DNA of 64,000 nt from Actinomycetota bacterium. Lineage in GTDB: Bacteria; Actinomycetota; Acidimicrobiia; Spongiisociales; UBA11373. Position 1 is the first letter of the stretch. Every line of letters begins with the position of its first letter. The position numbers and the translations under genes are program-made. Positions 5,298-20,496 of the stretch are shown here, in pieces. The DNA lies in contig JAHLKU010000003.1 of the NCBI GenBank assembly GCA_020444505.1, positions 21,824 through 85,823 of the forward strand, in the 5' to 3' direction. The notes under the pieces were generated by a model. It worked only from the letters and a program-made list of their open reading frames with translations. It was not told the DNA's origin and searched no databases.

Positions 5298-5378
5298 TGG
5301 CGGTGGCGCGCTGCGCTGCGATGGGGTAGGGTGACCCGGACTTGGTCTGATGGTAAGACCAACCCTCTGGGAGGCACG

Positions 5379-6656: not shown

Positions 6657-7966
6657 TGGTGAGGGTCGCCCACTACATCAACCAGTTCTTCGCCGGCATC
6701 GGCGGCGAAGACAAGGCCGACCACCCCTTCGAGGTGCGCGAGGGCGCCGTCGGGCCCGGCCGGGCCGTGGAGATGGCGGGCGGTGGCGACGTGGAGATCG
6801 TCCAGACCCTGGTCTGCGGCGACAACGCCTTCCACGCCGACACCGAGGGCACCCTGGCAGCGATCGAGGCGGCCCTCGCCGAGAGCAAGCCGGACCTGCT
6901 CATCGCCGGCCCCGGGTTCAACGCCGGGCGGTACGGCCTGGCGTGCGCCGCGGTGTGCGCCGTCGCCACCGAGAAGCTGGGCATCCCGGCGCTCACCGGC
7001 GTGTACGTCGACGCCCCCGCCGTGGACGTGTACCGCAGCCGGGTGGTGATGGTGCCGACCGGCGACAGCGCGGCGGGGATGAAGGACGCCGTCGAGGGCA
7101 TGCTCCGGGTGGGCCTGCGCCTGGCGGCAGGGGAGCCGCTCGGTCCCGCCGAGGAGGACGGGCGCATCCCCATGGGCTTCCGCAAGGCCGTGGTCACCGA
7201 GACCCCGGTGGCGGCCCGGGTCGTGGACATGCTGATGGCCAAGCTGCGGGGCGAGCCGTTCACCAGCGAGGTCGCCCTGCCCGAGCCGGCCGAGGCGGTG
7301 CCGCCGGCGCCGCCGGTGGCCGACCTGTCCGGGGCGGTGGTGGCGGTGGTCACCGACGGCGGCCTGGTGCCGGTGGGCAACCCCGACGGCATCGAGTCGT
7401 CGAGCGCCACGAAGTGGGCCCGCTACCCGATCGACGACCTGGTCCGCAACGACGACCCCTCGTTCATGTCCATCCACGCCGGGTACGACTCGCAGTGGGT
7501 GGACGCCGACCCCGACCGCCTGGTGCCCATCGACGCCCTGCTGGACCTGGAGGCCGAGGGCGTGATCAAGGAGGCGCACCCCTACTACTACGTCACCACC
7601 GGCACCGGCACCACCGTCACCCACGCCGAGCGGATGGGGGAGGAGATCGCCAAGCAGTTGATCTCCGACGGCGTCCACGCCGTGCTGGTCACCAGCACCT
7701 GAGGCACCTCCACGCGTTGCGGTGCAACGCTCGCAAAGATGATCGAGAAGGCCGGCATCCCGGCGGCACACCTGGCGGCGATGACGTCGATGGCCAAGAT
7801 CGCCGGGTCGAACCGGATCATCTCCTCCGGCCTCATCCCCCATCCGGTCGGCGACCCGTCGCGCTCTCCGGAGGAGGAGCTGAAGTGGCGCACCGGGCAG
7901 GTCCGCAAGGCCCTGAACGCCGCGGCGACGCCGCTCGACGAGGCCCTGATCTTCCCGGACTGGTAA
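6656..7966 (+). CDS. grdB: glycine/sarcosine/betaine reductase selenoprotein B (GrdB/GrdF/GrdH family) with in-frame UGA (Sec) at 7700..7702
   Basis: The ORF 6656..7702 ends in ...VLVTST-UGA. Read-through continues in frame (UGTSTRCGATLAKMIEKAGIPAAH ... PHPVGDPSRSPEEELKW...) into track ORF 7739..7966. The total is 436 codons, the typical GrdB size. The flanking motif STU-GT-x-TRCGAT matches the family Sec site. A SECIS-like hairpin lies at 7714..7730. Confidence 0.8.
7714..7730 (+). promoter_or_regulatory. SECIS-like stem-loop downstream of grdB UGA (GCGTTGC-GGU-GCAACGC)
   Basis: Perfect 7-bp inverted repeat beginning 11 nt after UGA 7700..7702, with GGUG in the apical region. Spacing and position match bacterial SECIS elements. 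Confidence 0.55.
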
Positions 7967-7982
7967 TCGAGTGAGGGACGCC

Positions 7983-9410
7983 ATGATCCAACCCGCCATC
8001 CTCCACACCGCCTACGCCCTGGCCCACGCGCCGGACTTCGTCCGCTACGGCTCCAAGCCCACCAGGGAGCTGCCGGCCAACCCCGGGCTGCTGGAGGAGA
8101 TGACGGCGGCGCTGCGGCCCTGGGACGAGGTGGTGGCCTACCCGCCGAACCAGGTGTTCATCGGCAACCTGAGCCCCGACGAGCTCGCCGCCACCCCGCG
8201 GCCCTGGTACGAGCACCTGGTCCCCGACGCCTCGCCCATCGGCCCGTGGGGGCGCATCGTCACCCAGGCGGCGCTCTACGGCCTCATGAAGCTGTGCGAC
8301 GACTTCGACCTCCTGACGATCACCGAGGCGGTCGCCGCCGAGGCCCGCGAGGAGCTCACCCGCTTCGAGCACCGGCGGGACCGCATCACCGGCGTCCCGC
8401 CGGAGGACCTGGCGGCGCTCATCGGCAAGCACGACGGCCTCACCCTGTACCACCGCGGCGAGGTCGCGGGGTTCCTGCGCACCGCCCACGAGCAGGACCC
8501 CTCGCTGGACGCCCATGTGCTGTTCGAGAACCTGGCCTGCAAGGCGACGGCGGTGCTGGCCGTCAACGACGCGTTCGATGGTGGCCCCATCGGCCCCGAA
8601 GACGTCGACTACCTGCTCAACACCGGCGAGGAGGCCGTCGGCGACCGCTACCAGCGCGGCGGCGGCAGCCTGTCCAAGGCCGTCGGCGAGGTGGTGGGGT
8701 GCCTCAACGCCACCGGGTCGGACATCAAGGCGTTCTGCTCGGCCCCGGTGCACGCCATCATCTCCGCCTCGGCGATGGTGGCCTCCGGCCTCCACAAGTA
8801 CGTGGTGGTGCTCGGGGGCGGGTCGCAGGCGAAGATGGGCATGAAGTTCCGGGCCCACCTCCGCAACGGCGTCCCGGTGATGGAGGACTGCCTGGCGTCG
8901 ATGGCGTTCGTCGTCGGGCCGGACGACGGCACCGGCATGCGGGTGCGGCTCGACGTCACCGGCAAGCATCCCATCGGCGCCGGGTCGTCGGCCCAGCACG
9001 TGTACCAGGCGCTGGTGGTGGAGCCGCTGGAGCGGGCCGGCATGACCATGACCGACGTGGACCGCTACGCCGTCGAGATGCACAACCCCGAGATCACCGA
9101 ACCGGGCGACAGCGGCGACGTCCCCAAGACCAACTACCGCACGCTGGCGGCGATGGCGGTGCTGCGGGGCGAGATCGAGCGGGACCAGATGGACGAGTTC
9201 TCCGCCACCCACGGCATGCCCGGGTTCTCGCCCACCCAGGGCCACATCCCCGCCGGGGTGCCGTTCCTCGGCCACGCCCTGGCGGCCATGCGGCGCGGCG
9301 AGATGGACAACGCGATGATCGTCGCCAAGGGCAGCCTGTTCCTCGGCCGGATGACGCAACTCGTCGACGGGGTGTCGTTCCTCGTCGAGGCGCCGTCCGA
9401 GCCGTCGTGA
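7983..9410 (+). CDS. grdC: glycine reductase complex component C, beta-subunit-like protein (GrdC family, thiolase/FabH-like fold)
   Basis: Motifs PNQVFIGNLSPDELA, QRGGGSLSKA, GCLNATGSDIKAFCSAPVHA, YAVEMHNPEITEP, GHIPAGVPF and GSLFLGRMTQLVDGVSF resemble the GrdC family. ATG 7983 is preceded by GAGGGA. The track start at 7971 is an upstream GTG. Confidence 0.65.
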   Translation: MIQPAILHTAYALAHAPDFVRYGSKPTRELPANPGLLEEMTAALRPWDEVVAYPPNQVFIGNLSPDELAATPRPWYEHLVPDASPIGPWGRIVTQAALYGLMKLCDDFDLLTITEAVAAEAREELTRFEHRRDRITGVPPEDLAALIGKHDGLTLYHRGEVAGFLRTAHEQDPSLDAHVLFENLACKATAVLAVNDAFDGGPIGPEDVDYLLNTGEEAVGDRYQRGGGSLSKAVGEVVGCLNATGSDIKAFCSAPVHAIISASAMVASGLHKYVVVLGGGSQAKMGMKFRAHLRNGVPVMEDCLASMAFVVGPDDGTGMRVRLDVTGKHPIGAGSSAQHVYQALVVEPLERAGMTMTDVDRYAVEMHNPEITEPGDSGDVPKTNYRTLAAMAVLRGEIERDQMDEFSATHGMPGFSPTQGHIPAGVPFLGHALAAMRRGEMDNAMIVAKGSLFLGRMTQLVDGVSFLVEAPSEPS

Positions 9411-9447
9411 CCGTGATGGATCGAGCAGAGGAAGGAGGTGCACTGCA

Positions 9448-9915
9448 ATGGATCTGAAGGGAAAGCGCATCGTCGCCATCGGCGAGCGCGAGGGCATCAA
9501 CGGCCCCAGCCTGAAGCTGCTCGCCGAGTCGGCGGGTGCGACGGTGGTCTTCAGCGTCACCCAGTGCTTCGTCTGAACGGCTGGTGGAGCCATGGACCTG
9601 GACGACCAGGCGAACGTGAGTCGCCTGGCCGAGGAGTCCGGGACCGACGACATGCTCGTCGTCCTGGGCCAGCCGGATCCCAACAGTGCGGGCCTCTTCG
9701 CAGAGACCGTCACTCGAGGCGATCCGACCTGGGCAGGTCCGTTGGCCGGAGTCCCGTTGGGGCTCCCCGTGTATCACATCCTCGAAGAGGAGATCAAGGA
9801 GTCGATGGACCCCGACCTGTATCAGGAGCACGTGGGCCTGATGGAGTTGTCGGCGGACGTCGACGAGATCGTGAAGTGGGTCAAGTTCTACCGCGAGGGC
9901 GGCGGCGAGGCCTGA
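9448..9915 (+). CDS. grdA: glycine/sarcosine/betaine reductase selenoprotein A (GrdA) with in-frame UGA (Sec) at 9574..9576
   Basis: Strong RBS GAAGGAGG 8 nt upstream of ATG 9448. The N-terminal ORF MDLKGKRIVAIGEREGINGP ... VVFSVTQCFV ends at UGA. It continues in frame as TAGGAMDLDDQ ... ETVTRGDPTWAGPLAGVPLGLPVYHILEEEIKE (track ORF 9592..9915). The CFV-U-TA(A/G)GAMDL motif is the canonical GrdA Sec site. Confidence 0.85.
9579..9591 (+). promoter_or_regulatory. candidate SECIS apical hairpin downstream of grdA UGA (GGCU-GGUGG-AGCC); uncertain
   Basis: Short 4-bp stem with a GGUGG loop starting 2 nt after the UGA. Alternative stems exist at 9597..9610 and 9606..9628. The exact SECIS fold cannot be resolved by eye. 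Confidence 0.25.
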
Positions 9916-9931
9916 CAGTCAGGAGACGACG

Positions 9932-11395
9932 ATGTCCCAGGAGATCATGAAGCTCGACATGTTCGTCCACGGCGAGTGGCGCGCCGGATCGACCGGCGAC
10001 GTCGTCGAGGTGATGAACCCGGCCAAGGACGAGGTGCTCGCCACCGTGCCCGACGGCGGCGCCGAGGACCTCGACGCCGCGATGGCGTCGGCGGCCGAGG
10101 GCCTGAAGGTGTGGCGCGCCACCCATCCCCGCACGCGGGCCCAGGTCATCGCCAAGATGGCCGCGACCCTGCAGGAGCGGGCCCAGGAGTACGCCGAGTT
10201 GTACAGCCTCAACTCGGGCGGCTCGATCGGCACCGGGCTGTGGACCATGTACGACGTGGCCGGCCGGCGCTTCGAGTACTACGCCGGGCTCGCCGACAAG
10301 GTCCGGGGCGACACGTTCGTCACCCCCGGCGAGTTCCTCAGCTACACGCTGCGGGAGCCGGTGGGCATCACCGGGCACATCATCCCGTGGAACGGGCCGC
10401 TGTGGATCGGCAGCCGCACCATCGCCCCGGCGCTGGCCGCAGGGAACTCGGTGGTCGTGAAGCCGTCGAGCGAAGCGCCCGTCACCCTGCTCAAGTTCGC
10501 CGAGATGGCCGTGGAGTGCGGCCTGCCGCCCGGGGTGCTCAACGTGGTCACCGGCCGGGGCAGCGGCATGGGCGACCTGTTCACCCGCCACGAGGCCCTC
10601 GACGGCATCTACTTCACCGGGTCCACGTGGACCGGGCGGAAGATCCTCGCGAACACCGCGACCACCAACGTGCGGACGGTGATGGAACTGGGCGGCAAGT
10701 CGCCCAACATCGTGTTCGCCGACGCCGACATGGAGGCTGCCCTCGACGGGGCGATCATGGCGATCTTCGCCAACTCGGGGCAGATCTGCGTGGCCGGGTC
10801 CCGGCTGCTGGTGCAGGCGTCCATCCACGACGAGTTCGTGGAGCGCCTCGCCGCCAAGGCCGCCGAGATCACCATCGGCGGCCCCGAGGCGAACGCCCTC
10901 ATGGGCCCGCTGATCACCTCCGCCCAGCGCGAGAAGGTGCTCGAGTACATCGCCTCCGGCAAGGAGGAGGCCGACCTGGTGACCGGCGGCGGCGTCCCGG
11001 ACGACCCGGCGCTGCAGAAGGGCTACTTCGTGGCGCCGACGATCTTCGACGGCGTGCCCAACACCGCCCGGATCGCCCGCGAGGAGATCTTCGGGCCGGT
11101 GCTCTCCGTCACCTCGTTCGAGGACTTCGACGAGGCGATCACCCTGGCCAACGACACCGAGTACGGCCTGGCGTCGGCGGTGTGGACCGGCGACGTCGCC
11201 ACGGCGCACAACGCAGCACAGGCGCTGGAGGCCGGCCAGGTGTACATCAACCACTACTACACGGCCGCCTTCGAGACGAGCCGGTCGCCGTACAAGGCGA
11301 GCGGCCACGGCATGAGCGAGGGCCCCGACGCCATCTACGAGTACCTCAACCAGAAGGCCGTCAGCGTCAAGCTGGGCGAAGGCGAGGGGTGGTAG
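9932..11395 (+). CDS. NAD(P)-dependent aldehyde dehydrogenase family protein
   Basis: 487 aa with an ALDH catalytic Cys motif (GQICVAGSRLLV), ELGGKSP, and the N-terminal Rossmann GxxxxG region. Confidence 0.85.
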   Translation: MSQEIMKLDMFVHGEWRAGSTGDVVEVMNPAKDEVLATVPDGGAEDLDAAMASAAEGLKVWRATHPRTRAQVIAKMAATLQERAQEYAELYSLNSGGSIGTGLWTMYDVAGRRFEYYAGLADKVRGDTFVTPGEFLSYTLREPVGITGHIIPWNGPLWIGSRTIAPALAAGNSVVVKPSSEAPVTLLKFAEMAVECGLPPGVLNVVTGRGSGMGDLFTRHEALDGIYFTGSTWTGRKILANTATTNVRTVMELGGKSPNIVFADADMEAALDGAIMAIFANSGQICVAGSRLLVQASIHDEFVERLAAKAAEITIGGPEANALMGPLITSAQREKVLEYIASGKEEADLVTGGGVPDDPALQKGYFVAPTIFDGVPNTARIAREEIFGPVLSVTSFEDFDEAITLANDTEYGLASAVWTGDVATAHNAAQALEAGQVYINHYYTAAFETSRSPYKASGHGMSEGPDAIYEYLNQKAVSVKLGEGEGW

Positions 11396-11418
11396 CGCAC
11401 CGGGCAGCGGAAGCGTGT

Positions 11419-11438
11419 ATGGTCTGACCATAAGACCA
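11419..11438 (+). promoter_or_regulatory. FadR-type GntR operator-like palindrome ATGGTCtGACCAT with a third GACCA half-site
   Basis: Perfect 6-1-6 palindrome containing the TGGTCnGACCA core, in a relatively AT-rich 97-bp gap upstream of the adh-like gene (GTG 11492). The related site 5343..5361 lies upstream of grdE. Confidence 0.5.
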
Positions 11439-11491
11439 AGACGGCCCGCGGTGGCAGGCGCCGCGGCCGACCGAGACGATCTGGAGGCGTT

Positions 11492-12511
11492 GTGAAGGTT
11501 GCAGTGTTCACCGGGGTAGGCAGCGTGGAGATCCGGGAGGAACCGGATCCGGTGGCCGGCCCCCAGCAGGTCGTCATCGAGGTGGCCGCGTGCGGGATCT
11601 GCACGTTCGAGCGGCGCCTCTTCGCGGGCGACAAGCAGTGGTACCCGGTGAACCCGGGTCACGAGGCCTCCGGCACGGTCGTCGCCGTCGGCGAGGCGGT
11701 CGACGGTCTCCCCGGCTCGCCGCAGGTGGGCGACCGGGTCACCTTCGACCTCCTCACCCGCTGCGGCACCTGCAACCAGTGCCGCCGGGGCAAGTCGTCG
11801 CTGTGCCGGATGCGGCAGGGCCGCGTTCTCAGCGACGGCACGGTCTCGTTCGGTGGGTTCGCCGGCAAGGTCGCCATCGACGCCAAGTCGGTGTACCCGA
11901 TCGGCGATGCCCCGTTCACCCACGCCGCCATGGGCGAGCCGATCGCCTGCTGCGTGCACTCCATCCGCCAGGGCGGCCTGCTGCCCCGCGACCGGGTGGC
12001 CATCATCGGCGGCGGCCTGATGGGCCGCCTCCACCTGGCGCTGGCCCGCCTGGAGGGCGCCGGCCCGATCGGCGTCATCGACGTCTCGGAGCAGCGCCTC
12101 GCCGAGGCGACCGCCGCCGGCGCCGACTGGGTGGCCACCCCCGAGACCGCCCTCGAGGTGGGCGGCAAGCAGGACGTGGTCTTCGTCACCGCCATGGCAG
12201 GGGTGGACCTGGCCGTGGAGATGGCCGACCTCGGCGGCACGGTGGTCCTGTACAGCGCATTCGACAAGGACCTGCCGGCCACCGTCGGCGCGGACAAGTC
12301 GCACCGCGAGGAGGTCGCCATCGTCGGGGCCTTCAGCCAGGAGCCCGCCGACTGGCGCACCGGCTCGGCCCACATCCGCAGCGGCGTCATCGCCGACGCC
12401 CTCGATGCGCTGGTCACCGCCGAGTACCCGTTCTCCCAGGTGGAGGACGCCCTCAAGCTGGTGACCTCCGAGCCCACGTACCGCGTGTTCGTCGAGCCCG
12501 AGAGCGAGTGA
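11492..12511 (+). CDS. zinc-dependent alcohol dehydrogenase (MDR family; threonine/sorbitol dehydrogenase-like)
   Basis: Catalytic Zn ligands (C..H..E) and a structural Zn motif CGTCNQCRRGKSSLC. Rossmann motif GGGLMG. GTG start with GGAGG upstream. Confidence 0.8.
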   Translation: MKVAVFTGVGSVEIREEPDPVAGPQQVVIEVAACGICTFERRLFAGDKQWYPVNPGHEASGTVVAVGEAVDGLPGSPQVGDRVTFDLLTRCGTCNQCRRGKSSLCRMRQGRVLSDGTVSFGGFAGKVAIDAKSVYPIGDAPFTHAAMGEPIACCVHSIRQGGLLPRDRVAIIGGGLMGRLHLALARLEGAGPIGVIDVSEQRLAEATAAGADWVATPETALEVGGKQDVVFVTAMAGVDLAVEMADLGGTVVLYSAFDKDLPATVGADKSHREEVAIVGAFSQEPADWRTGSAHIRSGVIADALDALVTAEYPFSQVEDALKLVTSEPTYRVFVEPESE

Positions 12512-13824
12512 TGCCGGCAGAGGTCGTCGCCGGCGTCGACGTGGGCAGCAGTGCGGCGCGCGCCGTCGCGATCGATCGCGACGGCGCCGTGGTGGCCTCC
12601 TCCCGGGCCCCGTACCCCGCACACGACGGCAGCCTGGCCGGCGAGGTGGACCCCGCGGTCTGGCTCGCCGGCCTCGTCGCCGCCCTCGACGGGCTCGGTG
12701 CGCGGCCCCTGGCGCTCGGCGCCGGCGGCCACGGCCCCACCACGGTCGCCTCGACCGGCGAGCTGGCGCTGACGTTCCGCCACCCCGCCGGCGCCACCGA
12801 GGGCCCGGTGGGCCAGCACGCCGCCCACCTGCGGGTGTTGCGGGACCGCCTCGGCGACCACGTCGAGCCCCGCCAGATGTGGGACCACCTGCTGGCCCGT
12901 CTCGGTGGGGACCCCTCCACGCAGAGCATGTGGCCGGGTGAGGAGCCCCTGGAAGGCTTCGGGTCGCCGATCCCGGCCGGCACCGCCGTCGGGACCAGCG
13001 CCGGCGACCACGGCGAGCCGGAGGGGATGACCCTGGTGCCCGGCGCCAACGACGCCTACATGACCTCGTGGGCGTCGGCCATCGACACCCCCGGCCGGGC
13101 CTTCGACCCGGGCGGCAAGACCGGCGGGCTCGGCGTGGCGATCCGCGCCGAGGGGGAGCACGCCGAGATCGCCAAGTTCGGCATGCCGAGCCACGTGCCG
13201 GGCGTCGCCATCGTGGGGGGCCCGGTGGCCAGCCACGGGGCGATGATGGACTGGTGGTCGGCCGTCACCGGCCGCCCCGTCGCGGAACTGCTGGACCTGG
13301 CCGCCGACGTCGAGCCCGGCTCGCACGGCGTGATGGTGCTGCCGTTCCTCGAGGGGGAGCGTGCGCCCCGCTGGAACCTGGGCCTGCGGGCCGAGATCAC
13401 CGGCATCGGCGCCGAGACCGGCGTCGGAGTGCTGACCAGGGCGCTGGTGGAGTCCACGGCCTACGGCCTCGCCCACATCGCCCGCGACCTGGCCGGGCAC
13501 GGCATCGCGCTGGAGCGGGTCGTGTCGAGCGGCGGCCCGGCCCGCAGCCCGCTGTGGACGTCGATCAAGGCTGCTGTGCTGGACGTGCCGGTGGATGTGC
13601 CGGACTGCGACGAGATGAGCGCCTACGGGGCGGCTCTGGCCGCCGGGGCGGCGCTGGGATGGTGGCCGCGCCCGGGGGAGGGGGTCCCCGGCGACTGGCC
13701 GATGCCGGAGGTGACCACCTACGAGCCGAAGCCGCTCGAGGTGTATCGCAAGGGATTGGACCGGTTCATCGAACTCGGCGACGAGGCGGTGGCCCGGCTC
13801 GAGAGAAGCCAACCGAACGAGTAA
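12511..13824 (+). CDS. FGGY-family carbohydrate kinase (xylulokinase/LsrK-like)
   Basis: N-terminal VAGVDVGSSAARAVAID and C-terminal FGGY motifs (SGGPARSPLWTSIKAAVLDVPV ... AYGAALAAG). The start overlaps the upstream stop. Confidence 0.75.
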   Translation: MPAEVVAGVDVGSSAARAVAIDRDGAVVASSRAPYPAHDGSLAGEVDPAVWLAGLVAALDGLGARPLALGAGGHGPTTVASTGELALTFRHPAGATEGPVGQHAAHLRVLRDRLGDHVEPRQMWDHLLARLGGDPSTQSMWPGEEPLEGFGSPIPAGTAVGTSAGDHGEPEGMTLVPGANDAYMTSWASAIDTPGRAFDPGGKTGGLGVAIRAEGEHAEIAKFGMPSHVPGVAIVGGPVASHGAMMDWWSAVTGRPVAELLDLAADVEPGSHGVMVLPFLEGERAPRWNLGLRAEITGIGAETGVGVLTRALVESTAYGLAHIARDLAGHGIALERVVSSGGPARSPLWTSIKAAVLDVPVDVPDCDEMSAYGAALAAGAALGWWPRPGEGVPGDWPMPEVTTYEPKPLEVYRKGLDRFIELGDEAVARLERSQPNE

Positions 13825-13833
13825 GGAGAACGC

Positions 13834-14607
13834 ATGGAATACATGTCCTCGGCCATCGGGGCCGCCAAGACCCGCCGGGCCTCCCGGTTCCTCGAGGAGG
13901 ACGGCCGCGGCTTCCTGGTGGCCATCGACATGCAGTCGGCGTCGGGATCGGGCCCCGACCTGGACGTCGTCGAGAAGATCGCAGCCGGCGGCCCCAACGG
14001 CATCCTGGTGTCCTGGCAGATCGCTCGCCGCTACCCCGAGGCGTTCCGCAACTGCGGCATGATCCTCCGCATCGACGGCACCACCACGATGCTCGGGAAC
14101 TACGGCGCCGGCGACCAGTTCGCCCAGATGTACGAGATCGAGATGGCCGCCCGCATCGGCGCCGACGCCGTGGTCTGCATGGCGTTCCCCGGCGCCGACG
14201 ACGACGTCGTCGGCATGCGCAAGCTGGTCGCCATGGTCAACGAGGCCGAGAAGGTCGGCATGCCGGTGATCGCCGAGTCGATCCCCGGGTCGTGGGCCAA
14301 GACCGTCCCGTGGGACGCCGAGCACATCGCCAAGGCCGCCCGCATCTGCGTCGAGGTGGGCGCCGACGCCATCAAGACGATGATGCCGGAGGACCCCTCG
14401 GAGATCCCCGATGTCATCGCCAACATCGAGGCCCCGGTGTTCTGCCTGGGCGGTCCGAAGAAGGAGACCGAGGACGAGGCGGTCGAGTACGCCCGCACCG
14501 TCGTGGCCGCCGGTGCCAGCGGCATCGCCTTCGGCAGGAACGTGTTCGGGGCCAAGGACCCGACCGCCATGGTGCAGCGCCTGTACGAAGCCGTCCACGG
14601 CGCCTGA
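13834..14607 (+). CDS. class I aldolase, DhnA/FbaB family (DeoC/LacD-type TIM barrel; LsrF-like)
   Basis: 257 aa with DhnA-family motifs (GFLVAIDMQ ... RIDGTTTML ... GADAVVCMAFPG ... GMPVIAE ... FCLGGPKKETEDEAVEYARTVVAAGASGIAFGRNVF). Confidence 0.7.
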   Translation: MEYMSSAIGAAKTRRASRFLEEDGRGFLVAIDMQSASGSGPDLDVVEKIAAGGPNGILVSWQIARRYPEAFRNCGMILRIDGTTTMLGNYGAGDQFAQMYEIEMAARIGADAVVCMAFPGADDDVVGMRKLVAMVNEAEKVGMPVIAESIPGSWAKTVPWDAEHIAKAARICVEVGADAIKTMMPEDPSEIPDVIANIEAPVFCLGGPKKETEDEAVEYARTVVAAGASGIAFGRNVFGAKDPTAMVQRLYEAVHGA

Positions 14608-14618
14608 GGAGGAGCGAC

Positions 14619-15134
14619 ATGGCAGAAGAAGCCTTCACCGAAGCCTGCGTCGAGGTGATGGCGCGCACCGCCTCGGCGGTCGCCATCCTGACGCTGGAGG
14701 ACGGCGACGGCGAGAAGCATGGCATGACGATCACGTCGCTGTCGTCGGTCTCGTCGGAGCCGCCGTCGGTGGTGGTCTGTGTGGGCGAGGGCGCCTCGTC
14801 GCACCGCTGGCTCGTGCCAGGCGCCCGGTTCGGCGTGAGCCTGCTGGGCGCCGGCCAGGTGCCGTACTCCCTGGGGTTCTCCTGGGCGAAGTCCGACGAC
14901 CCGTTCGCCGACTTCCCGTGGGAGCGCGCCGAGGACGGCACGCCCTGGCTCAGCGAGGCCGCCGCCCACATGATCTGTGAGGTGGAGCAGGTGACCCCGT
15001 ACCACGGCAGCGCCGTGGTCATGGCCCGCGTGGTCGGCTGTGGGGTGCACAAGGACGAGACCCTGGTCTACTGGCGACGCAAGTACTTCGACGGCCTCAC
15101 CGAGGCCGAAGGAGGGGTGACCGGCACGTGGTGA
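14619..15134 (+). CDS. flavin reductase family protein (HpaC/RutF-like)
   Basis: 171 aa with flavin-reductase-like domain motifs (AVAILTLEDGDG ... GMTITSLSSVSSEPPSVVVCV). GAGGAGGAG RBS. It lies in the frame of a largely spurious 688-aa track ORF. Confidence 0.7.
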   Translation: MAEEAFTEACVEVMARTASAVAILTLEDGDGEKHGMTITSLSSVSSEPPSVVVCVGEGASSHRWLVPGARFGVSLLGAGQVPYSLGFSWAKSDDPFADFPWERAEDGTPWLSEAAAHMICEVEQVTPYHGSAVVMARVVGCGVHKDETLVYWRRKYFDGLTEAEGGVTGTW

Positions 15135-15616
15135 CCCCGGGCGGAGGCGCGAGGAGCGGGCCGGGCAGGACCCGGCTGACCCACCTCGCCCTCCGCGTCC
15201 ACGACCTGGAGCGCTCGATCGACTGGTACGAGCGGTACACGCCGATGCGCACCCTCAAGCGCTTCTCGGACGCCTACGGCGTGGGTGCCTGGCTGGCCGA
15301 CCCGGCCGACGGCGCGTGTCCGTTCACCATGGCCCTGTCGCAGTTCGACCCGGACAAGGATCCCTTCGCCTACGCCCCGGCTGCGGTGCTGGGACCCTTC
15401 GCCCACCTCGGGTTCGAGGTCGGCAGCCGCGACCAGGTGGATGCCATCGCCGCGATGGCCGAGGCGGAGGGCATCCTCAGCTACCCGGTCACCGAGATGC
15501 CGTATCCCATCGGGACGATCTGCTTCGTGGAGGACCCCGACGGCAACACCGTCGAGTTCTCCTTCGGGCAGGGCACCTATCCGATCTGGGACGAGGAGTG
15601 GGGGAGCGAAGCATGA
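15128..15616 (+). CDS. VOC family protein (glyoxalase/bleomycin-resistance/dioxygenase fold)
   Basis: LTHLALRVHDLERSIDWYERY ... GFEVGSRDQVDAI ... FVEDPDGNTVEF are typical VOC beta-alpha-beta-beta-beta motifs. The exact start is uncertain. Confidence 0.65.
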   Translation: MVTPGGGARSGPGRTRLTHLALRVHDLERSIDWYERYTPMRTLKRFSDAYGVGAWLADPADGACPFTMALSQFDPDKDPFAYAPAAVLGPFAHLGFEVGSRDQVDAIAAMAEAEGILSYPVTEMPYPIGTICFVEDPDGNTVEFSFGQGTYPIWDEEWGSEA

Positions 15617-16386
15617 GTGCCGACCGCCCCTTCGGGCCCGTGGAACGAGCCACCGTCCCCGAGCAGGTGCGCGACGACATCCACCGCCGCATCATCAGCG
15701 GCGAGATCCCGCCCGGCTCGCCGCTGCCGGCGGAGCGGGTGCTGGCGGAGCAGTTCGCCGTCGCCCGCACCTCGGTGCGGGAGGCCATCCAGGGGCTCAT
15801 CGCCCTCGGCGTCATCGAGCGGCGCGGGAACCGCTCCTACGTCGCCGAGCGCCTCCCCGACGCCGAGCTGCACCGCCCCGACGGCAGCAAGCGCTCATTG
15901 CGCGAGGCCCTGGAGGCGCACCACGTGCTGGAGCGCTCGCTGTTCGAGATGGCGGCCGCCCGGGCCACGATGCGGGAGCGCTCCGAGGCCCTGGCGCTGG
16001 CCCGCCGCCCCGCCCCCGCCGACGTCGGGGAGTTCCTCATCGTCGAGCGCCAGTTCCACGCCGCCATCGCCGGGGCGTGTGACAACCCGGTGCTGGTGGA
16101 GGTGTACGGCCGGATCATGGACGTGCTCATGGGCACCGACGAGGTGGTGGCCCTCGTGCTGGGGGTGGCGCCCGGCGAGGACCCGGCGCCCGCGATAGCC
16201 AAGGCCGCCTCCGAGCACCTGCGCATCGCCGAGGCGTACGTGGACCAGGACCTCACGAGGATGATGGAGGAGTGGGAGCACCACCGCGGGCCTTCGGCCT
16301 GGCGGCAGGCGGGCCGGGTGCGCCGCCCGGCCGGCCCCACCAGGGCGAGGGAGGCCTGGGGGCTCGAGAGGACGGTGGGGTCGTGA
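15613..16386 (+). CDS. GntR family transcriptional regulator, FadR subfamily (FCD domain)
   Basis: N-terminal winged HTH (PLPAERVLAEQFAVARTSVREAIQGLIALGVIERRGNRSYV) followed by an all-helical FCD-like domain. The start overlaps the upstream stop (ATGA). Confidence 0.75.
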   Translation: MSADRPFGPVERATVPEQVRDDIHRRIISGEIPPGSPLPAERVLAEQFAVARTSVREAIQGLIALGVIERRGNRSYVAERLPDAELHRPDGSKRSLREALEAHHVLERSLFEMAAARATMRERSEALALARRPAPADVGEFLIVERQFHAAIAGACDNPVLVEVYGRIMDVLMGTDEVVALVLGVAPGEDPAPAIAKAASEHLRIAEAYVDQDLTRMMEEWEHHRGPSAWRQAGRVRRPAGPTRAREAWGLERTVGS

Positions 16387-16573: not shown

Positions 16574-17734
16574 ATGAGACGACTTGGTATCAAGTTGGTG
16601 GCGCTCATCGCCGTCCTGGGGCTGATCGCAGCCGCATGCGGCGACGACGACGCCGACACGACGGCCGCGCCGTCGACGACCGAGGCCGCTACGACGACCG
16701 AGGCCGCGACGACGACCGAGGCCGCGACGACGACCGAGGCCGCGACGACGACCGAGGCGATGGCCAACCCCGCCGACTTCAACGGCGACGGCGTGGTCCG
16801 CATCGGTGTGGCCACCGACGGCCCGCGCGACGACGGCGCCTACTACCAGGCGCTGGTGGAGAGGGTCGAGCGGATCTCGGCGGACAACGGCTTCGAAGCG
16901 CCGGTGGTCGTCGACGAGATCGACACGGCCAACTCCCGCGTCGAGCTGGAGAACCTGGCCGCCCAGAACGTGGACATCATCGCCATCGGCTCGGAGGCCG
17001 TGGCGCGGGACAACGAGGATCTCTTCACCACCTACGACGAGATCTTCTGGTACTGCAACTGCGGGTCCGGCTATGCCGACACCCCGGGCCTCCTCCGCAG
17101 CGCCGACAGCGGCGCCGAGCTGAACATCTCGGCCGGCTATGCCGCCGGGCTGCTGCTCCAGGAGCGTGGTGGCGACAGCGTGGCCTTCCTGGGCTGCTGT
17201 GACCTCCCCTTCGAGTTCGAGTCCCTGTGGGGCTTCGAATTCGGCCTGGCGCAGGTGGACCCGACGTTCACCGTCACCTACACGCCGACCGGCCAGTTCC
17301 CGTACGACTTCAACAACGTCGCCGGTGCGACGGAGGCGTACAACAACGCGGTCGCCGAGGGTGCGGATGCGGTCTACCCGTTCCTGGGCGGGGCGCACGA
17401 GCCCATCGTGCAGCTCGCCAATGCGGACGGGCTGATCGTGAACACGGCCGGTTCGTCGCAGGGTTGTGAGCGCGACGACCTCGACTACGACTTCGAGGTC
17501 ATGTTCGACGCCGGCGACTACCTCGAGCCGCTGTTCGAGGAGATCCTGGCCGGGACGGCCGAAGAGGGCACCGCCCGCTACTTCACCGTGGGCATCGACC
17601 CGCAGGTGGGTGCGGTGTTCTGCGACGCCACCCCCGAGCAGGTGCAGATGCTGGCGGACTTCAACGCCCGCATCGGGGCCGGCGACTTCGCCGACAAGAT
17701 CTACGAGATCCTGTCCGAGGCGTACGGCTTCTAG
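16574..17734 (+). CDS. BMP-family ABC transporter substrate-binding lipoprotein (PnrA-like; nucleoside/purine-type)
   Basis: Lipoprotein signal (LIAAAC lipobox), low-complexity (TTTEAA)n linker, then a BMP/PnrA-like periplasmic binding fold. Confidence 0.75.
   Translation: MRRLGIKLVALIAVLGLIAAACGDDDADTTAAPSTTEAATTTEAATTTEAATTTEAATTTEAMANPADFNGDGVVRIGVATDGPRDDGAYYQALVERVERISADNGFEAPVVVDEIDTANSRVELENLAAQNVDIIAIGSEAVARDNEDLFTTYDEIFWYCNCGSGYADTPGLLRSADSGAELNISAGYAAGLLLQERGGDSVAFLGCCDLPFEFESLWGFEFGLAQVDPTFTVTYTPTGQFPYDFNNVAGATEAYNNAVAEGADAVYPFLGGAHEPIVQLANADGLIVNTAGSSQGCERDDLDYDFEVMFDAGDYLEPLFEEILAGTAEEGTARYFTVGIDPQVGAVFCDATPEQVQMLADFNARIGAGDFADKIYEILSEAYGF
16673..16762 (+). repeat. five tandem 18-bp repeats (ACGACGACCGAGGCCGCG) encoding the (TTTEAA)n linker of the lipoprotein
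   Basis: Direct tandem repeat visible in the DNA and as EAATTT x4-5 in the protein, between the lipobox and the binding domain. Confidence 0.9.
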
Positions 17735-17744
17735 CCGCTCGATT

Positions 17745-17780
17745 GCCCGTGGCGGGCGCCTCCGGGCGCCCGCCACGGGC
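17745..17780 (+). other. perfect 16-bp-stem intercistronic hairpin between the SBP and ATPase genes
   Basis: GCCCGTGGCGGGCGCC-tccg-GGCGCCCGCCACGGGC immediately after the SBP stop (17734) and before the ATPase RBS. Confidence 0.6.
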
Positions 17781-17814
17781 CCGACCGACACCCGAGGGAG
17801 GAGCCACGACGACC

Positions 17815-19389
17815 ATGCCGGCCGAACACAGCGGTGACGCACCGGTCCTGCAGTTGCGGGAGATGACGAAGCGCTACGGCGAGGTCGTCGCGTGCGACCA
17901 CGTCGACCTCGACCTGCATCGCGGCGAGATCCACGGGATCCTCGGCGAGAACGGGGCGGGCAAGTCCACCCTCATGAAGATGGTCATCGGCCTGGCGCTG
18001 CCGGACGCCGGGACCATCCGCCTCGACGGGGAGGCGGTGCGCTTGCACGACCCCGTCCAGGCCGCCCGGCACGGCATCGGCATGGTCCACCAGCACTACA
18101 GCCTGGTGGGCGCCCTGACCGTGTGGGAGAACGTGGCGCTCGGAGAGAAGGGCGCCCTCGACCCCGGGTCCACCCGCGACCGGGTCGTCGAGATCACCGA
18201 GCGGTACGGCCTCGAGGTCGACCCGGACGCCTACGTCCGCGACCTCACCGCCGGCGTCCGCCAGCGGGTCGAGATCATCAAGTGCCTCCGTCACGAGCCG
18301 CGCATCATCATCCTGGACGAGCCCACCGCGGTGCTCACGCCGGCGGAGTCGGAGCACCTGTTCGAGGTGCTGGGCGAAGGCGTGCGGCGCGAGGGGTGGG
18401 CGGTGGCCCTGGTGAGCCACAAACTGGACGAGGTGCTCGCCGCCACCGATCGCATCACCATCATGCGCAACGGCCTGGTGGTGGACCGGGTGGCCACCGC
18501 GGACGCCGACGCCCACTCGCTCGCCAGGGAGATGGTGGGCCGCGAGGTCACCCTCCGCACCGGGGCGGCGGCGATCGGTTCGGTGGAGGCTCCCGCTGCG
18601 GCCGCCGGGGAGGCGGCAGAGGTGAAGGGCGAGCCGATCCTGGAGGTGCGCGACGCCGCCACCCGCGCCGCCGACGGCAGGGTGCTGCTCGACGGCCTCT
18701 CGCTGGAGGTGCACCCCGGCGAGGTGGTGGGTGTCGCCGGCGTCGAGGGGAACGGCCAGACGCCGCTGGTCAGGGTGCTGGAGAGCCTTCTCCGCCTGGA
18801 GACCGGCAGCGTCCGGGTGGACGGAGAGGAGATCCCCACCTGCAGGGCAGGTGCCATGGGGGCCGCCGGCATCGCCGTCATCCCCGCCGACCGGCACCAC
18901 TCGGGGTGCGTGCCCGACATGACGGTCGCCGAGAACCTGGTGCTCGGGTCGGTGGACCGGTTCGCCGAGTGGGGCCTGCTGAAGCGGGAGGACATCAAGG
19001 CGCACGCCAGGGTGCTGATCGAGGAGTTCGACATCCACTGCCCGTCGTGCGACACGCCGCTCGGCCAGTTGTCGGGCGGGAATCAGCAGCGGGTGGTGCT
19101 GGCCCAGGCCCTGTCGGTGGGCCCCAAAGTGCTGGTGGCCCACCAGCCCACCAGGGGCCTCGACGTCGGGGCCATCGAGTACATCGGGGGGCGCATCACG
19201 GCGGCCGCCGAGTCGGGGATCGGGGTGCTGCTCCTGTCCACCGACCTGGGCGAGATCGCCGCCCTCTCCGACCGCATCGTCGTCATCTACGAGGGCAGGA
19301 TCATCGGGGAGATGAGCCGGGCCGAGTTCGACATGGAGCGCCTCGGCCTGCTGATCGGCGGCTCCACCGCCGGGGAGGACGCCGCATGA
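17815..19389 (+). CDS. ABC transporter ATP-binding protein with duplicated ATPase domains (sugar/nucleoside CUT2-type)
   Basis: Two Walker A (GENGAGKST; GVEGNGQT), two signature (LSGG) and Walker B motifs. GAGGGAGG RBS. Confidence 0.85.
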   Translation: MPAEHSGDAPVLQLREMTKRYGEVVACDHVDLDLHRGEIHGILGENGAGKSTLMKMVIGLALPDAGTIRLDGEAVRLHDPVQAARHGIGMVHQHYSLVGALTVWENVALGEKGALDPGSTRDRVVEITERYGLEVDPDAYVRDLTAGVRQRVEIIKCLRHEPRIIILDEPTAVLTPAESEHLFEVLGEGVRREGWAVALVSHKLDEVLAATDRITIMRNGLVVDRVATADADAHSLAREMVGREVTLRTGAAAIGSVEAPAAAAGEAAEVKGEPILEVRDAATRAADGRVLLDGLSLEVHPGEVVGVAGVEGNGQTPLVRVLESLLRLETGSVRVDGEEIPTCRAGAMGAAGIAVIPADRHHSGCVPDMTVAENLVLGSVDRFAEWGLLKREDIKAHARVLIEEFDIHCPSCDTPLGQLSGGNQQRVVLAQALSVGPKVLVAHQPTRGLDVGAIEYIGGRITAAAESGIGVLLLSTDLGEIAALSDRIVVIYEGRIIGEMSRAEFDMERLGLLIGGSTAGEDAA

Positions 19390-20495
19390 CCGCCCGCACC
19401 GACACGCTCCTCGACCCCAGGGTCCGCAGCGGGCTCGAGATGGCCGGGCTGTACGTGCTCAGCCTCGCCGGCGCCCTGCTGCTGTCCGGTCTGCTGGTGG
19501 CCGCCACCGGCAACTCGGCGTTCAAGGTGTTCGGCGCCCTCCTCGACGGCGCCTTCCTCGCCCCCGGCCGCTGGGGCCAGACCCTGGTCGTGGCCGCCCC
19601 GATGCTGCTGGTGGCGCTCGGCATGGTGGTCGGCGTCAAGGCCGGCTTCTTCAACATCGGCCAGGAGGGACAGCTGCTCATCGGCGCCATGGCCATGGCA
19701 TGGGTGGGCACCCGGTGGCCCGGCCCCGGCCCGCTGCTGCTGTTCGTGGGGCTGGCACTGTCGATGGCATTCGGGGGCGGCTGGGCCGGCCTCGCCGCGC
19801 TGATGCGATTCCGGCGGGGGGTCCCGGAGGTGATCTCGACGCTGCTGCTGGTGTTCGTCGCCGCGCAGTTCAGCGGGTACGCCATCACCGCCGACTGGCT
19901 GTTGCGGGACCTGGACACCACCGGCCCGACCCGGTCGGTGAGCAGCGCCCCGCTGGACGAGGCCATCCGGCTGCCGGTGCTCCGCATCTTCGGCAACGAG
20001 TTCAACTGGGGCATCGTCATCGCCCTGGCGCTGGCGGTGCTGCTCGCCGTGGCGCTGGTGCGGTCGGTATGGGGGTTCCGGCTCCGCATGCTGGGCCACA
20101 ACCCGGCCGTCGCCCAGAAGGCAGGCGTCGCCTCCACCCGCATGGGCAGCCTCGCCCTGTTCCTGTCCGGCGGGCTCGCCGGGCTGGCCGGGGCGGTGAT
20201 GCTGGCCGGCGGCTCGTCGGGCTTCCGGGTCACGTCGGGGTTCTCGCAGAACTTCGGGTGGCAGGGCCTGCTGGTGGCCCTGCTGGCCCGCAGCAGCCCG
20301 ATCCTGGCCATCCCGATGGCCATCGTGTTCGCCGCGCTCCGCACCGGGAGCGGCTTCCTGGCCGCCACCGGGGTGGACCGCAAGATCGTCGACGTGGTGC
20401 AGGCGTTGCTGGTGTTGGCGCTGCTGATCCCACCGGCGGTCCAGTTCATCCGCGATCGCCGCAAGGCGCTGGCGATGGCCGGAGAGGAGGCATAG
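19386..20495 (+). CDS. ABC transporter permease (CUT2/BMP-system type)
   Basis: Polytopic membrane protein. The start overlaps the ATPase stop (ATGA). Confidence 0.8.
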   Translation: MTARTDTLLDPRVRSGLEMAGLYVLSLAGALLLSGLLVAATGNSAFKVFGALLDGAFLAPGRWGQTLVVAAPMLLVALGMVVGVKAGFFNIGQEGQLLIGAMAMAWVGTRWPGPGPLLLFVGLALSMAFGGGWAGLAALMRFRRGVPEVISTLLLVFVAAQFSGYAITADWLLRDLDTTGPTRSVSSAPLDEAIRLPVLRIFGNEFNWGIVIALALAVLLAVALVRSVWGFRLRMLGHNPAVAQKAGVASTRMGSLALFLSGGLAGLAGAVMLAGGSSGFRVTSGFSQNFGWQGLLVALLARSSPILAIPMAIVFAALRTGSGFLAATGVDRKIVDVVQALLVLALLIPPAVQFIRDRRKALAMAGEEA

Positions 20496-20496
20496 C

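Follow-up and report, generated by a model that had tools for sequence, protein, structure and literature searches.

A 64-kb stretch of DNA from a member of the Acidimicrobiia (the whole stretch analysed, hereafter ‘the window’) carries a gene cluster in which glycine reductase (grd)-like genes for a selenoenzyme are followed immediately by a catabolic module (positions 9932-16386). The module codes for an aldehyde dehydrogenase (ALDH), a zinc-dependent alcohol dehydrogenase (Zn-ADH, or ADH), an FGGY-family kinase, a DhnA-type aldolase, a flavin reductase-like protein (FlaRed), a VOC protein and a GntR-family regulator. We lean towards the interpretation, while leaving considerable room for doubt, that this cluster breaks down a polyol chain attached to a nitrogen of an imported heterocycle (most probably the ribityl group of riboflavin or of a close relative), and that it is an Acidimicrobiia counterpart of the fin genes described below. 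The initial annotation of the region had suggested that the module makes the substrate of the Grd-like reductase. This core idea gains support from a linkage that is conserved across Acidimicrobiia orders, from an operator shared by the two parts of the cluster, and from the independent assembly of a comparable gene combination at another locus (L091).

It has been shown that Clostridium scindens converts riboflavin to lumichrome anaerobically, and that high riboflavin induces one gene neighbourhood, finA-K (PMC13492142, July 2026). These genes include those for permeases (finA/F), a RibF-like kinase (finB), a class I aldolase (finC), a Zn-ADH (finD), a regulator (finE), an ALDH (finG) and two members of the family of glycine/betaine/sarcosine reductases (finHI), and a short version lacking finGHI is found in Faecalicatena fissicatena, which makes hydroxyethylflavin (PMC13492142). 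In the scheme put forward by the authors of that study, loss of a triose comes first, and FinHI then cleave the two-carbon remainder from the ring nitrogen (PMC13492142). The system described herein is best regarded as a new and probably non-orthologous version of this recently proposed type of anaerobic flavin side-chain pathway.

Organization of the gene cluster

Given that the window DNA is 70-78% G+C, genes were called from third-position GC (GC3) frame analysis followed by a translation check, and were assigned to families with Pfam and NCBIfam. The gene families, conserved synteny, shared operator, modular architectures and atypical Grd features that we report are computed observations. 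All genes between positions 271 and 21492 lie on the plus strand, and the families previously named for the seven module genes were confirmed, as were their common orientation and their contiguity with the grd genes. The functional unit is wider than the module itself, since it includes an EamA/DMT permease gene upstream (4362-5297; Pfam EamA) and a BMP-type ATP-binding cassette (ABC) importer downstream (16574-21492).

The grd genes occur in the order E-B-C-A. They encode a GrdE-like component B subunit of a non-pyruvoyl type (5379-6656; PF09338, 401 bits), a GrdB-family selenoprotein B (6656-7966; PF07355, 436 bits) with an in-frame TGA at 7700-7702, the thioester-forming component C beta subunit GrdC (7983-9410; NF040746, 595 bits against a cut-off of 450) and selenoprotein A, or GrdA (9448-9915; NF040748, 198 bits against a cut-off of 130). 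The gene for the NAD(P)-dependent ALDH (9932-11395; PF00171, 524 bits) is the last of the grd transcription unit and is separated from grdA by 16 nucleotides (nt), so the close spacing noted earlier stands although the gap of 17 given for it does not. A further 96 nt separate it from the gene for a polyol-type Zn-ADH of the medium-chain dehydrogenase/reductase (MDR) superfamily (11492-12511; Pfam ADH_N and ADH_zinc_N). The remaining genes code for the FGGY-family kinase, whose N-terminal domain is divergent (12511-13824; FGGY_C, 91 bits; 1-nt overlap with ADH), the DhnA/DeoC-type class I, or Schiff-base, aldolase (13834-14607; PF01791; 9-nt gap), the NAD(P)H:flavin reductase-like FlaRed (14619-15134; PF01613, 102 bits; 11-nt gap), the VOC/glyoxalase-fold protein (15128-15616; PF00903; 7-nt overlap) and the GntR-family regulator with its FCD domain (15613-16386; PF00392 and PF07729; 4-nt overlap). 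Coupling by 4-bp overlaps, as first described for the module, therefore holds for the VOC-GntR junction but is not uniform: the other spacings vary, and the 96-nt ALDH-ADH gap contains a promoter/operator-like site.

A Grd-like selenoenzyme that lacks the pyruvoyl site

GrdA carries the redox motif CFVU (CxxU), in which selenocysteine (Sec, or U) corresponds to the TGA codon at 9574-9576. In GrdB the Sec motif reads TST-U-GTSTRC, i.e. UxxSxxC rather than the classical UxxCxxC, and its clade has either Ser or Gly at the altered position (U-GT-S/G-TR-C); the TGA codon is kept in all homologues compared. The window sequence is 100% identical to a GrdB annotated in a metagenome-assembled genome of an ‘Actinobacteria bacterium’. 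A 7-bp hairpin begins 14 nt past the grdB TGA, and the hairpins after both TGA codons are plausible selenocysteine insertion sequence (SECIS) elements, yet they fold no better than shuffled sequence. Selenocysteine machinery was not found among the scanned proteins of the window, and a tRNA search of the window recovered no tRNA and hence no tRNA-Sec.

The GrdB protein passes only the broad ‘various_sel_PB’ subfamily model (TIGR01918, 465 bits). With the glycine model TIGR01917 it reaches 413 of the 602 bits required, and with the betaine GrdH model NF040795 449 of 775. The ‘exception’ models NF040794 and NF040793 for sarcosine reductase (GrdF/GrdG) are likewise missed, at 475 bits (cut-off 800) and 305 bits (cut-off 780), respectively. 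GrdE likewise falls below every NCBIfam equivalog cut-off. Published GrdB motifs are AHGGxD / TxGNxTxV for the glycine type and IHGGYDR...TTGTGT for the sarcosine subunit GrdF (Nobu et al. 2022, PMC9751293). The window GrdB does not keep the glycine-type motifs; it has the TTGTGT element of GrdF, with IHAGYDS in place of IHGGYDR.

In GrdE of C. difficile, the pyruvoyl cofactor arises from Cys242 by cleavage at Asn-Cys (PMC9908766). The alignment at this site is unambiguous. The classical SGN/CVSACDKN corresponds to CGVYVYGCYKN in the window and SGVYVYACYKN in its relatives, such that Asn-Cys is replaced by Val-Tyr throughout the clade, as compared with Ser-Phe both in a second GrdE paralogue of L078 and in P0475. 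This second paralogue, which also lacks the pyruvoyl Cys, we take to be the betaine subunit GrdI; the betaine-specific GrdI is unprocessed. From a scan of 1.84 billion representative proteins for GrdE-like sequences, we examined the 150 representatives nearest to the window GrdE (P0361-P0510), and only six of them have retained the Asn-Cys from which the pyruvoyl group forms. At the Cys position an aromatic residue is the most frequent finding, the residue pairs at the site including NY (28 representatives), DY (12), NF (7), HY (7) and VY (4). Thus, the window GrdE belongs to a large, unstudied radiation of Cys-less proteins.

Genes for GrdD, TrxB and TrxA, searched for by tblastn with L017 queries, are present neither in the window nor beside any of 16 loci of the clade (0/16), whereas they adjoin 44, 31 and 36 of 46 classical loci, respectively. 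The E-B-C-A order also sets these genes apart from classical grd operons.

Judging from its sequence, the Grd system of the window is non-canonical and is not a glycine reductase. Given that a Schiff base with a primary or secondary amine requires a pyruvoyl group, and that this GrdE lacks the pyruvoyl site, the substrate nitrogen is probably fully substituted. The missing pyruvoyl Cys and the GrdF-like TTGTGT element would fit an N-substituted substrate that forms no Schiff base. The acid that is reduced is more likely to be an N-carboxymethyl heterocycle (carboxymethylflavin) than glycine or betaine. The latter two had been put forward in the initial annotation, a proposal at odds with the failure to reach any curated cut-off for glycine, sarcosine or betaine and with the loss of the pyruvoyl Cys that glycine and sarcosine require.

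A shared operator

Two matches to the palindrome TGGTCTGA(YSR)TAAGACCA occur in the window, against 0.05 expected by chance. The first operator-like palindrome (TGGTCTGATGGTAAGACCA, 5343-5361, plus strand) is located 18 nt before the start of grdE and just downstream of a −10-like hexamer, TAGGGT. The second (TGGTCTGACCATAAGACCA, 11420-11438, plus strand) overlaps another −10-like hexamer, TATGGT, and lies 53 nt before the start of the ADH gene. Scans for E. coli-type promoters and terminators yielded nothing usable in this 72% GC DNA.

Throughout 2.24 Mb of fetched loci, the 17-nt motif is confined to the long-form loci defined in the next section, where it is always on the coding strand and always precedes grdE and ADH. 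It also stands before the gene for the substrate-binding protein (SBP) of the importer in L006, L008, L010, L012 and L093, and palindrome 1 is kept at the same place before grdE in L001, L003, L006, L008, L010 and L012. Only loci that carry the GntR gene have the motif. It is missing from the GntR-less loci L005, L013 and L088-L090, in which a TACGGT −10-like hexamer is all that is left upstream of ADH.

The core, TGGTC-N-GACCA, has the shape of a FadR-type operator, and TGGTCTGACCA-type palindromes match the TGGT-N-ACCA operator type of the FadR subfamily. We presume that the GntR/FCD protein binds these palindromes. The ALDH gene belongs to the grd transcription unit and not to the ADH unit, and the locus looks like a GntR/FCD-controlled regulon of two transcription units (three in some relatives). 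The initial annotation had held that placement of the module in an unrelated pathway with an independent promoter would speak against a functional link to the grd genes. The ADH gene does have its own promoter-like site but, because this site shares its operator with the grd promoter, the arrangement argues for one regulon rather than for separate functions.

Conservation and modular assembly

Homologues of GrdB were traced to contigs and to GTDB species genomes, and the loci (L numbers) were then mapped with the window proteins. The long form, grdE-B-C-A/ALDH/ADH/FGGY/aldolase/FlaRed/VOC/GntR/SBP, is present in L001, L003, L006, L008, L010 and L012, and a contig designated P0030 shares it through GntR, with a different ABC transporter upstream of grdE replacing the BMP-type SBP. 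GrdB in the long-form loci is 68-79% identical to that of the window and the flanks differ, and the recurrence of the same block in related contigs with different flanks indicates that the gene arrangement is not due to chance. Comparison of gene neighbourhoods across genomes that carry grdB, which had been recommended at the outset, thus finds the linkage in at least seven other Acidimicrobiia contigs. Conversely, homologues of the ALDH, ADH, kinase and aldolase were found within 10 kb of none of 71 classical loci (Clostridia, Tissierellia, Synergistota and others), where GrdB is 45-49% identical.

Other loci depart from the long form. L004, L009 and L011 break off after ALDH. In L005 and L013 (Ca. 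Spongiisociaceae, Acidimicrobiia), grdEBC(A) leads directly into ADH-FGGY-aldolase-SBP, with no ALDH, FlaRed, VOC or GntR genes, whereas L014 (Spongiisociaceae) has grdEBCA without the catabolic module. In L005, grdC and grdA are split by approximately 3 kb of DNA (12885-15800) carrying retropepsin-like (gag-asp_proteas), radical SAM and LRV-repeat genes on mixed strands, which appears to be an insertion into the grd operon.

A short form, EamA-ADH-FGGY-aldolase-SBP-ABC without grd, is found in L088, L089 and L090, two of which are on contigs of 2.8 and 4.1 Mb, and its aldolase is 59-62% identical to that of the window. Its presence without grd shows that the uptake/ADH/kinase/aldolase unit can stand alone, and this unit is probably older. 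One sub-lineage acquired two inserts: grdEBCA, with or without ALDH, which separates EamA from ADH, and FlaRed-VOC-GntR, which separates the aldolase gene from the SBP gene. The Zn-ADH is part of the kinase/aldolase unit, contrary to the idea that ADH and ALDH act in succession on an amino-alcohol. A generic module of this kind also exists outside the Actinomycetota, as a low-GC organism carries one: the metagenome contig L099 (43% G+C) has, at 4096-13995 and without grd, genes for a HutC-type GntR protein, a Zn-ADH, a DhnA aldolase, a BMP-type SBP, an ABC ATPase with two permeases, an RpiR protein and an FGGY kinase.

An independent assembly is found in L091 (65% G+C; GrdB 61-63% identical). 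Its first part encodes a GntR/UTRA regulator, the EIIA/B/C/D proteins of a mannose-family phosphotransferase system (PTS), a Zn-ADH, a DeoC aldolase, an EamA protein and a second Zn-ADH, and its second part consists of grdE-B-C-A followed by genes for a short-chain dehydrogenase/reductase (SDR), an ALDH, a HutI-like amidohydrolase, a luciferase-like monooxygenase, HPr and EI. The Grd proteins and ALDH are 62-66% identical to those of the window, whereas the ADHs (30-33%) and aldolase (29%) are only distant relatives. Because a PTS transports and phosphorylates in one step, it would replace both the ABC importer and the FGGY kinase. The same functional combination has thus been built at least twice from different parts, an outcome that makes little sense if ALDH and Grd do not receive the product of the aldolase. 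An orthologous ALDH gene also lies right after grdA in L016 (Anaerolineales), its product and that of L091 being 61-62% identical to the window ALDH. This placement in three lineages fits the earlier suggestion that an aldehyde is oxidized to the acid that Grd then reduces.

Sister grdE-B-C-A clusters in L007 and L092 (GrdB 61-63% identical) have the same Cys-less GrdE and a UxxGxxC GrdB. Nearby genes code for MttB-family and MtmB methyltransferases, a corrinoid protein, OCD/mu-crystallin, Ldh_2, an HpcH/HpaI aldolase, an Fe-ADH and an NMT1-type ABC importer, a neighbourhood that suggests a methylated-amine substrate such as betaine.

Catabolic enzymes

The best NCBIfam match of the ALDH is betaine aldehyde dehydrogenase (BADH; 468 bits, under the cut-off of 668), but we rejected this assignment because the Protein Data Bank (PDB) ranking places the protein equally close to ALDH1/2 and BADH. 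For the ADH, the nearest named NCBIfam families are scyllo-inosose dehydrogenase, Tdh and galactitol-1-phosphate 5-dehydrogenase, all below cut-off, and the nearest PDB sequences are an uncharacterized dehydrogenase, galactitol-1-phosphate 5-dehydrogenase and threonine dehydrogenases. The kinase matches xylulokinase best (119 bits against a cut-off of 380) and gluco-, xylulo- and glycerol kinases of known structure at about 50 bits. Overall, PDB sequence searches with the kinase, ADH and ALDH returned generic relatives only.

The aldolase belongs to a compact family (218 hits) and, like the other catabolic enzymes, is remote from characterized proteins, scoring 97 bits to MJ0400 and 66 bits to LsrF. 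Its sequence GADAIK181 conforms to the (G)AD-x-[IV]-K motif of DhnA/DeoC TIM-barrel proteins and aligns the Schiff-base lysine, invariant in 16 homologues, with Lys177 of the Thermoproteus tenax fructose-1,6-bisphosphate (FBP) aldolase and the equivalent lysine of MJ0400. At the position of the catalytic Tyr146 of the T. tenax enzyme (also Tyr in MJ0400) there is an invariant Ile, within E-S-I-P, and the usual DhnA motif D-H reads D-M-Q. On account of these two differences, proton-transfer chemistry may differ as well. A metagenome scan with the aldolase profile recovered mostly distant DhnA aldolases, none linked to grd. The kinase and aldolase do look like a polyol-phosphate cleavage module, as the initial annotation had proposed in part.

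In the long architecture, FlaRed is accompanied by ALDH, VOC and GntR. VOC genes also adjoin more distant aldolase/ADH/FGGY sets in L095 and L096, and the VOC protein is perhaps an isomerase or lyase. The EamA gene comes first in versions of the module both with and without grd, and its product may export the released N-compound (e.g. lumichrome) or, alternatively, act in import.

The importer and its ligand

The ABC importer has the features of the BMP/PnrA family: a BMP-fold lipoprotein SBP (16574-17734, with a lipobox and a weak Pfam Bmp match), a fused double ATPase (17815-19389; Pfam ABC_tran) and two BPD_transp_2 permeases (19386-20495 and 20497-21492). Its nearest NCBIfam family, below cut-off, is ‘putative B6 ABC transporter’ (BMP-type). 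The AlphaFold2 model of the SBP (pLDDT, a per-residue confidence score, of 92.5) matches only BMP-family proteins by Foldseek, with TM-scores (a measure of fold similarity) of 0.72-0.80, whereas LsrB ranks 45th at 0.54. The matched proteins have been solved with nucleosides (PnrA, BmpD, Lbp), N-heterocycles (AtzT) or riboflavin (RfuA, 4IIL) as ligands, and one of two weak hits in a profile search of PDB sequences was RfuA. Identity to any solved member, RfuA included, is 14-19%, and the fold gives no ligand specificity. The SBP has over 1000 homologues in the protein database, and because it is 62-68% identical between loci with and without grd, both forms of the cluster probably import the same ligand. 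An 18-nt tandem repeat at 16674-16758 (4.7 copies, 98% matches) encodes a Thr/Glu/Ala-rich linker, (TTEAAT)n, between the lipobox and folded domain, and the length of this linker varies among homologues. Neither the window nor the 187-nt leader of the SBP gene has a match to a riboswitch, or to any other RNA family, in Rfam.

Several neighbourhoods bear on the nature of the ligand. In the P0030 contig, a gene for a riboflavin/lumazine-binding (Lum_binding) protein overlaps the start of the ABC transporter gene immediately upstream of grdE, and beside it are a divergent gene for a HutI-like amidohydrolase and one for a luciferase-like monooxygenase. The syntenic locus L008 lacks the inserted block, and the same amidohydrolase/monooxygenase pair is present in L091. 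The next-nearest aldolase/ADH/FGGY set, in L096/L097 (47%, 56% and 45% identity, respectively), is surrounded by genes for Rieske dioxygenase alpha and beta subunits, a ferredoxin-domain protein, DUF1989, a formamidase/acetamidase, a HutI-like amidohydrolase, an MFS transporter and a VOC protein. Together with FlaRed in the operon itself, the neighbours in P0030, L091 and L096/L097 point to a heterocycle with a polyol chain.

BMP-family importers also accompany conventional grd genes. In approximately 21 of 46 classical Clostridia/Tissierellia operons (within L017-L087), a BMP-family SBP and ABC importer directly follow grdD, with an ATPase approximately 40% identical to that of the window. 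This link to nucleoside-type importers may reflect purine fermentation.

A proposed pathway and its merits

From the gene content we infer each chemical step of the following scheme, as well as the identity of the substrate. The BMP-type ABC system would import riboflavin or a close ribitylated heterocycle. The Zn-ADH would oxidize the penultimate 4'-hydroxyl and the FGGY kinase would phosphorylate the terminal 5'-hydroxyl, in either order, to give a chain that, as seen from its 5' end, resembles a ketose 1-phosphate. The class I aldolase, with its Schiff base at C4', could then cut between C3' and C2' to release dihydroxyacetone phosphate (DHAP) and 10-formylmethylflavin (N-CH2-CHO), which ALDH would oxidize to 10-carboxymethylflavin (N-CH2-COOH). 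GrdE and GrdB would bind this acid, no pyruvoyl Schiff base being needed because the nitrogen is fully substituted, whereupon the GrdB selenol would take the carboxymethyl group, displacing N10 and freeing lumichrome. GrdA and GrdC would turn the carboxymethyl group into an acetyl thioester on GrdC. EamA would export lumichrome, and FlaRed might keep the flavin reduced or supply electrons. In short versions, which lack grd and ALDH, breakdown would go no further than the formylmethyl or hydroxyethyl stage. The scheme explains the two-carbon flavin catabolites of gut and photochemical studies, as well as the Cys-less GrdE.

A number of observations weigh against a riboflavin pathway of this kind. 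The SBP is no closer to RfuA (TM-score of 0.77) than to nucleoside binders (0.80), the nearest named family of the ALDH is a betaine-aldehyde enzyme, and L005 and L013 have grd but no ALDH nearby. Since nearby genes for thioredoxins and for GrdD, the maker of acetyl phosphate in classical systems, are absent, the scheme names neither a fate for the two-carbon unit nor an electron donor. Riboflavin is scarce in nature, and a dedicated catabolic regulon for it in many Acidimicrobiia would be surprising. The fin pathway is itself based on transcriptomics and comparative genomics rather than on enzymology (PMC13492142). Furthermore, the likeness to fin is one of enzyme families and logic only. The kinase here is of the FGGY family, the sole kinase of the cluster, rather than RibF-like as is finB (no RibF-like protein is present among the scanned window proteins), the importer is a BMP-type ABC system rather than RibU, and the regulator is a GntR/FCD protein rather than a sugar-binding one.

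The same chemistry could instead act on a ribitylated lumazine, a deazaflavin (FO or F420 fragments) or another N-alkyl-polyol heterocycle, which would be cut to DHAP and N-CH2-CHO, oxidized to N-CH2-COOH and dealkylated by Grd. Actinobacteria make F420, the structural evidence for riboflavin applies equally to such compounds, and the large Cys-less radiation of GrdE-like proteins, with its six exceptions among the nearest 150, implies many substrates. We nonetheless regard a different heterocycle as unlikely, though a serious candidate, as no specific pointer to another compound was found and experimental backing for such an enzyme combination exists for riboflavin alone (PMC13492142). Improbable, in our judgement, is a route from an amino- or trimethylammonio-polyol or a choline-like alcohol, in which aminoacetaldehyde or betaine aldehyde would be oxidized by ALDH to glycine or betaine and a betaine-type reductase would form acetyl phosphate and an amine. 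The BADH match of the ALDH, the resemblance of the Cys-less GrdE to the second L078 paralogue, and the MttB, MtmB and corrinoid proteins of the sister clusters L007 and L092, which would use methylamines, are consistent with this route. However, the BADH score is below cut-off with ALDH1/2 equally close, GrdB and GrdE do not reach the cut-offs for betaine and sarcosine, the ligands of the SBP family are heterocycles or nucleosides and not quaternary amines, and genes for ring degradation recur around the module. Moreover, we know of no natural 1-deoxy-1-ammonio-pentitol.

A purely redox connection, in which a polyol module and a Grd system for unrelated substrates are co-regulated so that betaine or sarcosine takes up the reducing equivalents of ADH and ALDH in a Stickland-like manner, strikes us as very unlikely. 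In its favour, classical grd operons are electron sinks, the module stands without grd in L088-L090, and ALDH is missing from L005 and L013. Yet no transporter for a second substrate is encoded in the cluster, the grd genes interrupt the module between EamA and ADH, three lineages have an orthologous ALDH behind grdA, and the combination was put together independently in L091 and in the fin neighbourhood of Lachnospiraceae. Finally, an Lsr-like autoinducer-2 (AI-2) system with an LsrK-type kinase and an LsrF-type thiolase, to which the initial annotation had likened the kinase/aldolase pair, is barely credible. The FGGY kinase, DhnA-family protein and CUT2-type ABC importer are of the same broad families as LsrK, LsrF and LsrACD, but the kinase scores 38 bits against an AI-2 kinase cut-off of 528, the aldolase reaches 98 of the 297 bits that the LsrF model requires and lies nearer the ADH-synthase subfamily, there is no LsrG or LsrR, and the SBP is of the BMP type and not the LsrB type.

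If the ribityl-chain pathway is correct, then an anaerobic route for riboflavin side-chain removal that has just been proposed for a few gut Lachnospiraceae would be older and far more widespread, extending to environmental and sponge-associated Actinomycetota. It would also gain an explicit chemical scheme that explains formylmethylflavin, hydroxyethylflavin and carboxymethylflavin, which are long-known two-carbon flavin catabolites. The known reactions of the glycine reductase family, which involve small amines (and fluoride), would be extended to the removal of a carboxymethyl group from a ring nitrogen, which fits the loss of the pyruvoyl group. It would also follow, since most GrdE-like proteins near that of the window have lost the pyruvoyl cysteine, that the label ‘glycine reductase’ often misleads in metagenomes. 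More tentatively, the large clade of pyruvoyl-less, GrdD-less GrdB/GrdE proteins may be oxygen-independent N-dealkylases for N-carboxymethyl compounds. In Acidimicrobiia, widespread in sponges and sediments, one branch of this clade would complete a new anaerobic pathway for riboflavin or ribityl-heterocycles, yielding DHAP and an acetyl unit via FGGY and DhnA enzymes, and sister branches with MttB/MtmB or a PTS would act on other substrates.

Other features of the window

Upstream of EamA, the plus strand carries, in order, genes for an FtsX-type permease, a PNPOx-like protein, an aldo/keto reductase and a 64-amino-acid membrane protein. The last three (2641-4315, the first being a PNPOx/F420-type split-barrel protein) are translationally coupled through 4-nt overlaps and lie just before EamA. 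The aldo/keto reductase and 64-amino-acid protein are also present in the closest relatives, L001 and L003, as is the PNPOx-like protein in L003.

Convergent with the importer, on the minus strand at 21575-24839, are genes for a BcrAD/BadFG-type activator ATPase and two HGD-D proteins. These form a radical enzyme set like that of 2-hydroxyacyl-CoA dehydratase or benzoyl-CoA reductase, which is typical of strict anaerobes and unexpected in Acidimicrobiia. An anaerobic lifestyle for the host of the grd cluster would fit the presence of this set.

At 42181-44036, the gene for a PfkB-family sugar kinase overlaps that for an inosine-uridine nucleoside hydrolase, in what looks like a separate nucleoside/ribose salvage pair. 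Scans of the window proteins assign the remaining genes to housekeeping and unrelated functions. Same-frame adjacent open reading frames at 45227, 48016 and 55203 were considered as additional selenoproteins and rejected, as they are ordinary gene junctions. We found no relevant literature on glycine reductase in Acidimicrobiia, on grdB with FGGY genes, or on betaine reductase in sponge symbionts.

Comparison with known systems

In common with the fin neighbourhood, the cluster combines a class I aldolase, Zn-ADH, ALDH, Grd-family subunits and a permease, all five families being contiguous here, and it likewise includes a kinase. The division between long fin versions with ALDH and Grd and short ones without is mirrored by the window-type and L088-L090 clusters, and the proposed logic is the same: a triose is taken off first, and a two-carbon stub is then cut from the nitrogen. 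Aside from the discrepancies in kinase, importer and regulator noted above, the cluster differs in having a complete grdE-B-C-A set with two Sec codons, as opposed to two Grd-family genes in the fin report, in having FlaRed and VOC genes, and in its hosts, which are high-GC Acidimicrobiia from sponges, sediments and groundwater.

With the classical glycine, sarcosine and betaine reductases the cluster shares GrdA with its CFVU motif, a GrdB-family selenoprotein, a GrdE-family partner and GrdC, each a scored member of its family. It departs from them in gene order (E-A-B-C-D there), at the GrdE site (Asn-Cys there, Val-Tyr here), in the GrdB motif (UxxCxxC there, UxxSxxC here) and in the GrdD and trx genes that adjoin there and not here.

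Pathways of the L-fucose/L-rhamnose type proceed through a ketose 1-phosphate by means of an FGGY kinase, an aldolase and then an aldehyde dehydrogenase that acts on the released aldehyde. The proposed scheme parallels them in placing an FGGY phosphorylation next to a keto group, in aldol cleavage to DHAP and an aldehyde, and in oxidation of that aldehyde. There, however, an isomerase acts on an aldose and the aldolase is of class II, whereas here a dehydrogenase would act on a polyol chain and the aldolase is of the class I DhnA type. The aldehyde would also stay bound to nitrogen and proceed to a selenoprotein reductase.

Aerobic catabolism of riboflavin offers another point of reference. 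The lumichrome (Lum) pathway of Nocardioides simplex employs several amidohydrolases and a Rieske dioxygenase (PMC12746152), and the same enzyme families surround the L096/L097 copies of the module. The substrate and product proposed here, riboflavin and lumichrome, are also those of the aerobic route. The monooxygenase RcaE, in contrast, removes the whole ribityl chain oxidatively as ribose, whereas the cluster encodes no monooxygenase and would cut off three and then two carbons without oxygen. Lastly, the spirochete riboflavin importer RfuABCD and the PnrA and BmpD importers are similarly built from a BMP-fold lipoprotein SBP, a double ATPase and two BPD_transp_2 permeases, and their SBPs match that of the window with TM-scores of 0.77-0.80.

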